Under the pieces are notes generated by a model. The model was not told where the DNA came from and ran no database searches. It was given only the letters and a program-made list of their open reading frames with translations. A program made the translations under genes and the position numbers. A stretch of DNA of 64,000 nucleotides from Spirochaetota bacterium. Its GTDB lineage: Bacteria > Spirochaetota > UBA4802 > UBA5550. Location of the stretch: contig JBNKTL010000019.1 of assembly GCA_050298055.1 (NCBI GenBank), positions 1-64,000 on the forward strand. The letters run 5' to 3'. This document shows positions 43,842 to 47,109 of this stretch, in pieces (position 1 is the first letter of the stretch; every line of letters begins with the position of its first letter).

Positions 43842-44082
43842 TATATTTTTTGTTAAACCTCTTTAACAATTATATTCTCTCTCTAACCGCTTCCCGGTGA
43901 ATACCTCAGCCGAAAGCGGGGAAAACTACAGTTTTTTGTATTAATGACCGGAAACTCATTAACTCATTATCATTAATAAGAATAAATCAATTCCGGATGT
44001 TACCTGTCAATCAAGATTACAAAAGAGTCAAAAATGATATTTTATAGTTGATAATATTCTGCTGTATCTGGTAATCTGAGTT

Positions 44083-44454
44083 ATGAAAAAGATCATAATG
44101 TTATTACCCATCCTTATCTTCCTCTCCGCAACTCTGCTTTCCTCTTCTTCTTACGCGATGAGTGAAAATGATAAGATCCTGCACCTTTTGAAAGAGATTG
44201 AAGTTTCAGGTTATACCTTTATCAGGAACGGCAATGAATATCCCTCACGGAAGGCCAGGGAGCACCTTGAATTTAAACTGAAGAGAGCCGGGAAGATTAA
44301 AACAGCGGGTGATTTTATCAGAAAAATTGCGTCCCGGTCTTCATTTTCAGGTAAACCCTATTATATCAGGATGAAATCCGGCAGGATAATAAAAACAGAA
44401 GAGTGGCTCAAAGCAAAACTGAATGAACTGGAAAAACGCCAGAATTCGAAATAA
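44083..44454 (+). CDS. Exported DUF5329/YfeK-family protein
   Basis: Signal peptide; FIRNG..A..HL..K, FIRKIASRSSFSGKPY. Confidence 0.8.
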   Translation: MKKIIMLLPILIFLSATLLSSSSYAMSENDKILHLLKEIEVSGYTFIRNGNEYPSRKAREHLEFKLKRAGKIKTAGDFIRKIASRSSFSGKPYYIRMKSGRIIKTEEWLKAKLNELEKRQNSK

Positions 44455-44507
44455 CGGGAATGCCCATAGTTGTTATTAATCAGTAATTCACTGTAAAAAG
44501 TTAACAA

Positions 44508-44813
44508 TTAACAACAGGAGACTGAACCGGAATCATCCCCGCAACCGCAGGTTGGTTCGGTGCCCTTGATCATGCCCGTTAAAATACCGGCAGCACATCC
44601 CACACCCGATTGAACACTTATTGCTCCCTCCCGGCAGTTGAGAGCGCAGGCGCCGCATTCCATACAGAGGTCCCGGTTGACCAGTTCCGCCTTATTCCCC
44701 TTCATTCTGAAAACCTCATGGGGACAGACCTGTGTACAGAGAGTACATCCCGTGCATCTTTCACTGTCATACTTTAACGTGGTAACATTTTTTAAATAGG
44801 TTAATCCAAACAT
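44508..44813 (-). CDS. hgcB: Mercury methylation ferredoxin
   Basis: CTGCTLCTQVCP, the diagnostic CMECGACALNC, GVGCAA, and a C-terminal CGC..CC; directly downstream of hgcA. Confidence 0.96.
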   Translation of the reverse strand: MFGLTYLKNVTTLKYDSERCTGCTLCTQVCPHEVFRMKGNKAELVNRDLCMECGACALNCREGAISVQSGVGCAAGILTGMIKGTEPTCGCGDDSGSVSCC

Positions 44814-44846
44814 ACGCTCTCCCCAAATAAAAACTCACACAATCTT

Positions 44847-46010
44847 TTAAAGAAACCTGCTGATAATAAACAATACCAGCCCTGCCGATGCCGCAACTGC
44901 CTGTACCGGAACAGCAATCTTCAACTCCTTCATAACTCCGGAGAGTGAAGTAAATGTTGTTGATCCCGTAAAATTCATGGCAAAAAACGAAGTTATTGAA
45001 AGAGTAAGCAGCAGCAGGGACACGAGCTCTACATATCCCCCGCCGTTAAAACCGGGTAAGAAGAAATAGAGCATGCAATAAAGAAAAATGCCGGAAATAA
45101 GACCTTTAAAAGAAAAGGCCCTTCCCGGAATAAAGGGAATCAAAAGTGGTGTTATGACTGTTCCCGCAAGAAATGCCAGGATGAGGACAAGTAACGGATG
45201 GGCACCCCGGCTGATAATATTATCAAGGGAAAAACCCCTGCTGCTTATTCCGGAAAGTAAAAGAAAAACAGCAATTGCCATAAAGAGATATTTAAGGGCC
45301 AAAGAAAATTCAACCGGTGTCAAAATCAGCCTGCTGATAAATCCGAAACGGACTCTCCTCATCTCTCTGTCTGCCTTCATTCCCGCATCAAGAAACCTCT
45401 TGATGTCCGCAGCCCTCACCGGACCGTAAACAGGCTTAAAGCCGGTCTCCCGTGCCACAATATGCGCTGCCACACCGGGAGCGCCAAGCTGGGGGAGGAT
45501 AACCCTTCTGTGACTGACAACTTTCCCAAGAGAAGCAATTTTTATCCTTTTAATCATTTCATCCGTACCGAAAGTCCCTTTTCCTGCAGCGCACCATACA
45601 TTGATCCCCTTTGTATCCAGGACCAGTATCCAGGCATTAATTCCGGATAAATGACTTCTCAGGTGATCAAAACTCAGCTTGTAATTAGCTGAAACAAGTA
45701 CCGGTGAGTTTTTATCAGGATCTCCCGCGGCATAAAGACCCGGTGCTATCATATAGTTGTCTCTGCCAATATTGAGCCTTACCTTTACGGTCCCTGCCCG
45801 GTCCCGGGCAGAGAGCTGAGTATTAACTTTCGGTATCCTCCCTGCGGCTGTTTCCACATAACCCTTTACATCAAGATCCCGGTATGAAGTTTTCTGTTTC
45901 GACTTCCCATCCGGTCCGCAACAGGAACTTTTTGTGATAACCGGCAGCGGCTGTGAGCTATTTTTAATGGTTGGCTTCTTTTCCGATATATTCGGTCCTG
46001 TTGCTTTCAT
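44847..46010 (-). CDS. hgcA: Mercury methylation corrinoid protein
   Basis: PGLYA.G, SANYKLSFD, cap helix GINVWCAAGKGTFG, LPQLGAPG, GPVRA, five C-terminal TM segments with MNFTGSTTFTS. Confidence 0.97.
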   Translation of the reverse strand: MKATGPNISEKKPTIKNSSQPLPVITKSSCCGPDGKSKQKTSYRDLDVKGYVETAAGRIPKVNTQLSARDRAGTVKVRLNIGRDNYMIAPGLYAAGDPDKNSPVLVSANYKLSFDHLRSHLSGINAWILVLDTKGINVWCAAGKGTFGTDEMIKRIKIASLGKVVSHRRVILPQLGAPGVAAHIVARETGFKPVYGPVRAADIKRFLDAGMKADREMRRVRFGFISRLILTPVEFSLALKYLFMAIAVFLLLSGISSRGFSLDNIISRGAHPLLVLILAFLAGTVITPLLIPFIPGRAFSFKGLISGIFLYCMLYFFLPGFNGGGYVELVSLLLLTLSITSFFAMNFTGSTTFTSLSGVMKELKIAVPVQAVAASAGLVLFIISRFL

Positions 46011-46017
46011 GCTTTGA

Positions 46018-46485
46018 TTATTCTCCTTTTTGCAGAGGATTACAGCATCCCAAAACAGGTTTACTCACTGCAGTGTCCAGAAGCTTTAAAGAGTTAATAA
46101 CATCTTCCCTTTTTCCCACAGGGATGTTTCCCAGGATTTCTCCTGTATATTCCAGAGAACAGCTGTGAAGTTTCTTCTGAAGATTTAAACCCTTTTTCGA
46201 TAATACGAGAAAAACCTTTCTTCTGTCATTTTCACTGCGGTTTCTTTTGACGATTCCATCCCTGACAAGAAGGTCAACCACTCTTGTTAACGTGCTGGTT
46301 GCCAGTCCCGTTTCGTCGCTGAGACGGTTCATGGATATCTCTTCATTCTCATGAATGATTTCAATTATCTGGCACTGTGATACCGTCACACCATGGCAGA
46401 TCTTTTCGTTCCTGTCTATCCTGTTTACCTTTCTTAAAAGATTTTTCAGGATCAGTGTAAATTCTCTGTTCTCGTTATTATCCAT
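46018..46485 (-). CDS. Cys-rich MarR-family regulator
   Basis: wHTH STLTRVVDLL..DRRKVFLVLSKKG. Cys at ICH, SQC, HSC and terminal GCC. Ends 7 nt before hgcA. Confidence 0.9.
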   Translation of the reverse strand: MDNNENREFTLILKNLLRKVNRIDRNEKICHGVTVSQCQIIEIIHENEEISMNRLSDETGLATSTLTRVVDLLVRDGIVKRNRSENDRRKVFLVLSKKGLNLQKKLHSCSLEYTGEILGNIPVGKREDVINSLKLLDTAVSKPVLGCCNPLQKGE

Positions 46486-46493
46486 TTTAATAA

Positions 46494-46533
46494 TTGTATA
46501 CTACAAATATATTATAATACAAGTAAATGTCAA
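46494..46533 (-). promoter_or_regulatory. Candidate promoter and palindromic operator of marR-hgcAB
   Basis: Minus strand TTGACA (46533-46528)-16 nt-TATATT, overlapped by TTGTA-N3-TACAA (46506-46494). Confidence 0.55.
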
Positions 46534-46719
46534 GGAAAAAATTTAAAAACCGGTTATTGGAATTAGATTGAATAAATAGCTGAGCAGCTGTTATGATGGT
46601 AAAATTTCACCCCCACGGGGCCTAATTTTTTCTTGTGAAAAATATAATTATCAATTACACTTACCTGTGCTCAGCAACGGAGAGAAAAATTTTACATAAC
46701 TCAAAAAACGGAGATACGG

Positions 46720-47109
46720 ATGGAAACAATCAACGTTAAATCAGTAAGCAGCGAAGAACTCATTGAGATAACAGGGGAAGTGAGCAGGATAGTAAAAAAC
46801 AGCGGGAAAAAAGAGGGGATCTGCATCATCTATACTCCCCATACAACCGCAGCCATCACCATAAATGAAAATGCAGACAGGACCGTAAAGAGTGATATTT
46901 TGAAAGGACTGAAACATCTCGATTTTGAAAGAGTCAGGTTTGATCACGGAGAAGGCAATTCTCCCTCACATCTCAAATCATCAATCATCGGCTGTTCCGA
47001 AACATTAATGATAAACAGAGGTTCTCTTGAACTGGGGACCTGGCAGGGGATCTTCTTCTGCGAATTTGACGGTCCCCGGTCAAGGAAAGTCCATATAAAA
47101 GTTCTATAA
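46720..47109 (+). CDS. yjbQ: YjbQ/UPF0047 family protein
   Basis: PHTTAAITINEN, HGEGNSPSHLK, LGTWQGIFFCEFDGPR. Confidence 0.93.
   Translation: METINVKSVSSEELIEITGEVSRIVKNSGKKEGICIIYTPHTTAAITINENADRTVKSDILKGLKHLDFERVRFDHGEGNSPSHLKSSIIGCSETLMINRGSLELGTWQGIFFCEFDGPRSRKVHIKVL

Follow-up and report, generated by a model that had tools for sequence, protein, structure and literature searches.

What controls the genes for mercury methylation in the bacteria that carry them? Regulation of hgcAB expression is an open question, and one that limits the prediction of methylmercury production from gene abundance. It is raised here by a stretch of 64,000 nucleotides (nt) from a Spirochaetota bacterium (GTDB lineage Bacteria; Spirochaetota; UBA4802; UBA5550; GenBank assembly GCA_050298055.1, contig JBNKTL010000019.1, positions 1 to 64,000 of the forward strand), referred to below as the window, in which hgcA and hgcB are preceded by a gene for a Cys-bearing regulator of the MarR family. 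The three genes marR, hgcA and hgcB lie head to tail on the minus strand. Membership of a Cys-bearing family that heads arsM and ars operons, together with a conserved palindrome over the gene's own promoter, makes a thiol-based metalloid-sensing autorepressor the best-supported reading of this MarR. The same two lines of evidence sustain, in part, a preliminary description of the window made from sequence alone, which had proposed a thiol-based metal or metalloid sensor that autoregulates the operon. By analogy with a characterised relative, arsenic-like metalloids probably switch on hgcAB through this regulator.

The intervals between marR and hgcA (46017-46011) and between hgcA and hgcB (44846-44814), read from the sequence, are 7 and 33 nt respectively, and a Shine-Dalgarno-like hexamer for hgcA is embedded in the 3' end of marR (Table 1). 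These spacings and the common strand had been given in the preliminary description and were confirmed. The marR product matched MarR_2 (PF12802; 50.2 bits, E 2.8e-13, cut-off 27) and MarR (PF01047; 45.9 bits, E 5.3e-12, cut-off 24.6). Against the ArsR/SmtB model NF033788 it scored 18.8 bits, below the cut-off of 55, so the window's regulator is not an ArsR, as had been maintained from the outset. The hgcA product scored 438 bits with NF040863 (cut-off 275) and includes the sequence NVWCAAGK, which we take to be the cap-helix motif. The hgcB product scored 119.3 bits with NF040864 (cut-off 99); its translation contains two CxxCxxCxxxC motifs and ends in SCC. HgcA also carries an N-terminal extension of 58 residues ahead of the family-model start (45837-46010), which holds the sequence SSCCGPDG, another vicinal Cys pair in the operon.

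The adjacency of marR, hgcA and hgcB is real and recurrent, far beyond chance. In the window's genome and 40 relatives from the same family and order, 19 hgcA matches scored above the curated cut-off. The gene just upstream was of the MarR type at seven of these loci, ArsR/SmtB at eight (NF033788, 65-75 bits) and HgcC at two (NF040962, 74 and 128 bits, cut-off 70), with no regulator at the remaining two; MarR and ArsR types alternate before hgcA within this order. Across 401 genomes of Spirochaetota, 80 hgcA matches were found in 77 genomes. A profile built on seven hgcA-linked MarRs was then used for the whole phylum. Among the best 150 of its 817 matches, 35 scored at least 120 bits, well apart from ordinary MarR paralogues at no more than 108 bits, and 28 of these 35 immediately preceded hgcA on its strand. 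So did two matches of lower score, one at 85.8 bits and the other, confined to profile positions 69-154, at 84.6 bits. At least 30 of the 80 Spirochaetota hgcA matches are preceded by this type of MarR, a lower bound since the best 150 of 817 matches were considered.

The linkage extends beyond the phylum. A scan of one genome per prokaryotic species was made with a nine-member alignment, and the best 80 of 220 relatives were kept; hgcA and hgcB stood directly downstream in 69 of them. The 11 exceptions comprised one followed by ArsM, one by a C-GCAxxG-C-C protein, one by a MATE transporter, three at contig ends and five with an unassigned neighbour. Judged by record titles and tree labels, hosts belong to about ten phyla, including Spirochaetota, Thermodesulfobacteriota (Syntrophorhabdaceae, Syntrophaceae), Bacillota (Syntrophomonadaceae, Christensenellaceae), Acidobacteriota, Bacteroidota, Calditrichota, Candidatus Moduliflexota, Candidatus Walliibacteriota and KSB1. 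Every one of the 84 unique members linked to hgcA lies on the same strand as that gene, and in 79 of the 84 a candidate hgcA start, chosen heuristically, lies within 50 nt of the marR stop. Recurrence on this scale rules out the linkage as a one-off of this genome, a possibility that the preliminary description had left to a survey of hgcA neighbourhoods. Four further HgcA-like genes (L020-L023, from genomes G003, G027, G037 and G002) scored 162-176 bits, below the cut-off of 275, each beside a ferredoxin gene. No regulator was seen upstream of these four, and two of the genomes carry arsM-type MarRs elsewhere.

The best promoter-like site between positions 44000 and 47000 is TTGACA-16-TATATT, with agreement at 11 of 12 consensus positions. 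A TTGAC box stands at the equivalent position in the loci of seven relatives and at many further family loci. Two candidate operator sites of the palindromic form TTGTA-N3-TACAA coincide with this promoter, their centres 16 bp apart. The motif was counted at 102 unique family loci with enough upstream DNA, using start codons assigned by heuristic, and in 101 control stretches of equal length taken 700 nt downstream. A site with at most one mismatch was present upstream at 75 of the 102 family loci and in none of the 101 controls. Perfect sites within 150 nt of the start were found at 43 family loci, and tandem pairs 15-17 bp apart at 45.

The window's genome (4.7 Mb) contains six perfect operator sites, against approximately eight expected from base composition. 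The other five lie inside open reading frames (ORFs) or on a contig of 759 bases, so the regulator looks local to its operon, and a wider regulon is not indicated. In total the scan of 44000-47000 returned six promoter-like sites against 5.4 expected and five terminator-like sites against 3.0 expected. Numbers so near expectation lend no weight to the remaining candidates, among them a 10/12 promoter match inside marR itself (46229-46200) and weak hairpins around the 3' end of hgcA.

The Cys residues singled out in the preliminary description, C30 (ICH), C38 (SQC), C109 (SC) and C147/C148 (GCC), are all present in the translation. Their conservation was assessed over 103 unique family members, in the numbering of the window's protein. 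Cys occupies position 30 in 100 members, position 31 in 91, position 38 in 91, position 110 (next to the window's C109) in 59, position 147 in 92 and position 148 in 82. The last 25 residues hold at least one Cys in 93 members, with a CC pair in 72, and none in 10. A vicinal pair at positions 30-31 is found in 91 of the 103; the window's MarR reads C30-H31, and its nearest relative has Tyr at position 31.

An AlphaFold2 model built with 82 sequences reached a mean predicted local distance difference test (pLDDT) score of 90.5. Helices were predicted at residues 3-21, 35-47, 52-59, 63-75, 97-119 and 123-141 and strands at 79-83 and 91-95, giving the six-helix MarR fold with a β-wing and with the terminal helices as the presumed dimerisation region. 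MarR proteins act as homodimers. In the model, C30 falls in a short strand of the α1-α2 linker, C38 in α2 and C109 in α5, while C147 and C148 sit in a low-confidence tail past α6. Foldseek returned 327 PDB matches at E ≤ 0.001, and all 38 listed were structures of the MarR family. A sequence search of solved structures recovered generic MarRs, the best being 3S2W (E 3.1e-20), and no close relative with the Cys motif. The complete winged helix-turn-helix (wHTH) and the conserved operator led to rejection of the idea that this Cys-rich protein is a Hg chaperone rather than a regulator.

Family members away from hgcAB point to arsenic. The seven strong profile matches that do not adjoin hgcA form one sub-branch of the tree. 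At four of these loci (L031-L034, with L032 and L033 almost identical and from a single genome) the MarR gene is directly followed by one for the arsenite methyltransferase ArsM; three were scored with NF008823, at 337.5, 334.0 and 342.3 bits against a cut-off of 263. Two of the remaining three are followed by a weaker ArsM-like methyltransferase (about 78 bits), and one is without an assigned next gene. Two members of this arsM-type sub-branch head hgcAB instead. ArsM also follows the MarR in a Clostridia locus (293 bits). At L031, L032/L033 and L034, arsM is succeeded by a membrane methyltransferase-like gene related to MddA (methanethiol S-methyltransferase; 117-144 bits at the two loci scored, below the cut-off of 270), and a 7TMR-DISM adenylate/guanylate cyclase follows in two of these arsM-linked loci.

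The best plasmid relatives of the window's MarR, at 31.9% and 34.4% identity, also lie among arsenic genes. On Clostridium felsineum p330 the order is marR, a GNAT acetyltransferase (arsN-like), arsR, ACR3, a low-molecular-weight phosphatase, arsD and arsA. On Priestia aryabhattai pB2.1, marR is accompanied by a permease and lies near an ArsR gene and a radical SAM gene with an RCCLKC tail. Both plasmid proteins possess the Cys motif, and the operator motif precedes both genes, with one mismatch in C. felsineum and as the perfect site TTGTATTTTACAA in Priestia. The Priestia cluster (L155, record 102365-110790), in which an ATP-grasp gene is also found, resembles an arsinothricin-type cluster.

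Both plasmid MarRs nest in a Bacillota group that contains one hgcAB-linked and one arsM-linked member (Shimodaira-Hasegawa-like approximate likelihood ratio test, SH-aLRT, 92), and ars-linked and hgcAB-linked members interleave in the tree. When the two plasmid proteins are left out of the tree, 12 changes of the hgcAB label are required, with well-supported branches forcing at least seven, which indicates several moves of the regulator between arsenic genes and hgcAB. Together with its nearest relative, at 50-51% identity, the window's MarR makes up a small lineage outside a large branch of 92 members. The lead towards arsM-associated MarRs given in the preliminary description is borne out by the tree and by these contexts, in which relatives head arsM and ars operons.

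In the window itself arsenic genes of the families searched are wanting. Whole-genome searches for four families gave no match above cut-off to ArsM, ArsR HTH_5, Acr3 or MerA on the window's contig (C19), and to that extent the initial statement that the window holds no ars or mer genes is correct. ArsM and MerA were likewise without a match above cut-off in the whole genome, the best ArsM score being 169 bits. A conventional arsR-acr3 pair lies on contig C4 (G000:C4:80452-81815), with Acr3 at 453 bits and an ArsR helix-turn-helix match 243 nt upstream, which suggests that arsenite for efflux is sensed by an ArsR elsewhere and that the MarR may be dedicated to hgcAB. The best ArsM-like gene of the genome (218 residues, 169 bits; L144, G000:C30:12451-15984) overlaps the end of an ORF for a 137-residue winged-helix MarR-like protein, which has a single Cys and lacks the Cys motif.

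The mechanism proposed for the window is modelled on AdMarR_ars of Achromobacter deleyi As-55, the founder of the MarR_ars group defined by Yu et al. (2021; bioRxiv 10.1101/2021.08.12.456183). According to the portion of that preprint available, AdMarR_ars, with conserved residues C36, C37 and C157, binds the marR and arsV promoters and acts as a repressor of both genes. It is released by As(III) or Sb(III); Cys-to-Ser mutants lose the response, and C37S alone weakened it. Orthologues precede arsV, arsN and arsP. On this pattern, marR, hgcA and hgcB would form one operon transcribed from the sigma-70-type promoter described above. A MarR dimer would bind the two tandem 13-bp palindromes, one in the promoter spacer and one over the -10 end and transcription start, and the bound protein would act as a repressor of marR as well as of hgcAB. 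The thiolates of MarR would bind a soft metalloid, for which As(III), methylarsenite and Sb(III) are the most likely identities. Candidate ligands are the α1-α2 linker residue C30 and, in the flexible tail at the C-terminus, C147/C148, perhaps joined by C38 and C109. Metalloid binding would free the repressor from DNA, as with AdMarR_ars, and hgcAB would then be transcribed once such metalloids enter the cell. That the protein binds DNA and represses, that the three genes are co-transcribed and which ligand acts are inferred from sequence comparison, and we assign the reading as a whole, in which a metalloid-released MarR_ars-like autorepressor controls the marR-hgcA-hgcB operon, a probability of about 0.62.

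Several observations weigh against it. With C30-H31, the window's protein is missing the second Cys of the vicinal pair of AdMarR_ars, and positions 30/31 are likened to C36/C37 by fold position, not by an alignment with AdMarR_ars. The small lineage of the window's MarR joins the arsM-type sub-branch with moderate support only (SH-aLRT 81-85). No operator with one mismatch or fewer was found at 27 of the 102 family loci, given heuristic start codons. The profiles derive from genes that adjoin hgcA, and orthology therefore accounts for part of the reverse counts, 28 of 35 and 69 of 80; the forward count (30 of 80) is free of this problem, though how tight a lower bound it represents is uncertain. 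Finally, the ArsR-like protein ArsR2 of Pseudodesulfovibrio mercurii ND132, which is co-transcribed with hgcAB and arsenic-responsive, responds to S-adenosylhomocysteine too, according to the accessible part of Gionfriddo et al. (bioRxiv 10.1101/2022.10.17.512643), and regulators of hgcAB may therefore have a native signal other than arsenic, or more than one signal.

Other ligands may be considered. If the MarR sensed Hg(II) or methylmercury directly via its thiols, hgcAB would be under substrate or product control, with the logic of MerR in a MarR fold. Cys pairs bind Hg(II) very tightly, as is well established, and they occur also in the C-terminus of HgcB (CC) and in the N-terminal extension of HgcA (SSCCG), in a window that lacks ars genes of the families searched. 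This explanation is nevertheless unlikely: members of the family away from hgcAB stand before arsM and ars operons and not before mer genes, and the genome has no MerA above cut-off. Induction of hgcAB by Hg in cultures is not known. AdMarR_ars answers to As(III) as well as Sb(III); Hg is not reported as an inducer in the available portion of its description (10.1101/2021.08.12.456183). Metalloid binding is also a better fit to the vicinal CC pairs, and to the arsenic genes beside relatives, than is a redox thiol-disulfide switch of the OhrR/SarZ type, in which C30 or C38 would be linked to the partner's C-terminal Cys, DNA released and hgcAB tied to redox state. The 2-Cys OhrR layout places one Cys in the N-terminal helix region and another at the C-terminus, which the arrangement in the window's MarR resembles. 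OhrR and SarZ were among the sequence and fold matches, and oxidant sensing is plausible in hosts that are anaerobes. Against the OhrR model, however, the protein scored 36.9 bits, far under the cut-off of 200, and no peroxidase or thiol-repair gene stood beside any locus examined; we regard a redox switch as decidedly unlikely.

The closest structural match returned by Foldseek, the zinc-responsive ZitR (6fi9, E 5.7e-8), raises the further alternative that the Cys residues coordinate a metal, Zn(II) for instance, in a structural or co-repressor role, tightening DNA binding in the manner of ZitR or AdcR, or that the protein is a ligand-independent autoregulator. The listed ZitR mutants C30 and H42 fall in the same general region, an equivalence by region only, and C30-H31 and C38 of the window's MarR could suit Zn; a weak match to the AdcR family was also obtained (E 0.0036). 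Foldseek E-values were, however, nearly equal for dozens of MarRs, so ZitR is not singled out. Sequence identity was 16-17%, and no zinc-uptake genes occurred in any context examined, all of which makes this alternative distinctly improbable. A repressor released by arsenic-type metalloids remains the reading that we prefer.

The recurrence of such sensors before hgcAB invites a broader interpretation, which is offered tentatively and at rather worse than even odds. Across at least nine phylum labels, hgcAB would be linked to thiol sensors of the arsenic type that belong to three unrelated folds (MarR_ars-like, ArsR and AbrB/HgcC), which also head arsM and have been swapped repeatedly at the same position within one Spirochaetota order. 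In that case HgcAB would belong to a response to metalloids that As(III) or methylarsenite induces, and exposure to arsenic instead of mercury would be among the chief controls on when microbes can make methylmercury. The locus and approximately 84 alike offer a predicted repressor, a 13-bp candidate operator and named candidate ligand residues. Should the proposal hold in Spirochaetota, Syntrophorhabdaceae, Syntrophomonadaceae, Acidobacteriota and others, arsenic or antimony as a co-contaminant would predict methylation potential, and the native role of HgcAB would shift toward metalloid metabolism. Surveys limited to helix-turn-helix proteins of the ArsR type near hgcAB would also have overlooked a large share of the regulators.

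The features of the locus are collected in Table 1, with the genes that flank the operon on the opposite strand. In the locus of the nearest relative, a look-alike divergent ORF occupies the position equivalent to that of the UPF0047 gene.

Table 1. Features of the marR-hgcA-hgcB locus and its flanks, in window coordinates.
Feature	Position	Strand	Description
DUF5329 gene	44083-44454	+	convergent with the end of the operon
hgcB	44508-44813	-	101 residues; 2x[4Fe-4S] ferredoxin with C-terminal Cys pair (NF040864)
hgcA	44847-46010	-	387 residues; corrinoid membrane protein of mercury methylation (NF040863)
marR	46018-46485	-	155 residues; Cys-bearing MarR-family regulator (C30, H31, C38, C109, C147, C148) by Pfam, AlphaFold2 and tree; MarR_ars-like
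AAGGAG	46023-46028	-	Shine-Dalgarno-like for hgcA; within the last marR codons, 12 nt before the hgcA ATG at 46010
Candidate operator site 2	46494-46506	.	TTGTAGTATACAA; perfect palindrome; overlaps the -10 end and likely transcription start; ends 8 nt upstream of the marR ATG
-10 box	46506-46511	-	TATATT; consensus scan
Candidate operator site 1	46510-46522	.	TTGTATTATAATA; two mismatches to TTGTA-N3-TACAA; in the -35/-10 spacer
-35 box	46528-46533	-	TTGACA of the marR-hgcAB promoter; consensus scan
UPF0047 gene	46720-47109	+	divergent, upstream of the operon

Comparison with AdMarR_ars, as far as the available text of Yu et al. describes it, reveals a shared MarR fold, and the template used by those authors, 3S2W, is the best sequence match of the window's MarR too. 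The family layout of a Cys just N-terminal of the wHTH and a C-terminal Cys is common to both. AdMarR_ars heads the genes under its control and is autoregulatory; the window's MarR heads hgcAB, and its autoregulation is predicted. Relatives of the window's MarR are found in arsN/ars and arsM operons, in keeping with the contexts reported for MarR_ars. The two differ in that the predicted target here is hgcAB and not arsV, arsN or arsP, in the C-terminal CC pair in place of a single Cys, and in the Cys of α2 (C38, in 91 of 103 members), which is not among the three residues named in that text. The present hosts, moreover, are anaerobes of other phyla. Among the features of MarR_ars, the window's MarR has the C-terminal Cys but neither the vicinal pair nor the ars neighbours, the latter being found beside its relatives. 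With no second Cys, no ars context and no alignment with AdMarR_ars, it is called MarR_ars-like here and not a proven member of MarR_ars.

ArsR2 of strain ND132 offers a parallel in position. As described in the accessible part of Gionfriddo et al. (10.1101/2022.10.17.512643), its gene too immediately precedes hgcAB on a common strand and encodes a small Cys-bearing winged-helix repressor, with no other ars genes at the locus, whereas its protein family, Cys layout and operator differ from those of the window's MarR. The survey in that study used, by the same text, the ArsR helix-turn-helix model only. HgcC is another small DNA-binding protein at the same pre-hgcA position (two of the 19 order-level loci); its AbrB/SpoVT fold is unrelated, and it is absent from this window. 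Seven of the eight ArsR/SmtB genes found before hgcA in the window's order (L005, L008, L009 and L014-L018) encode proteins that end in Cys pairs or near-pairs (for example SCCGDKK, KKGCC and TKGCC). Two unrelated regulator folds at the pre-hgcA position share a C-terminal thiol tail.

In a literature search that left subscription papers outside its scope, no publication on arsM-linked MarRs was found, and none that ties this MarR family to hgcAB beyond a single sentence in Zhang et al. (2023; PMC10349881). That sentence places MarR-family genes upstream of hgcA in two isolates under a COG label only. Geobacter daltonii FRC-32 and Dethiobacter alkaliphilus AHT1 have MarR genes before hgcA. The immediate upstream position of a MarR-family regulator is thus shared with the window; in the part of the paper available no Cys motif, operator, family assignment or distribution accompanies it. 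The preliminary description had seen in this locus a distinct regulatory architecture for methylmercury production, a claim that is only partly right. A singular or unrecognised arrangement it is not, since the arrangement is widespread, a MarR before hgcA had been mentioned, and the subfamily of MarRs responsive to As(III) and Sb(III) has a characterised member.

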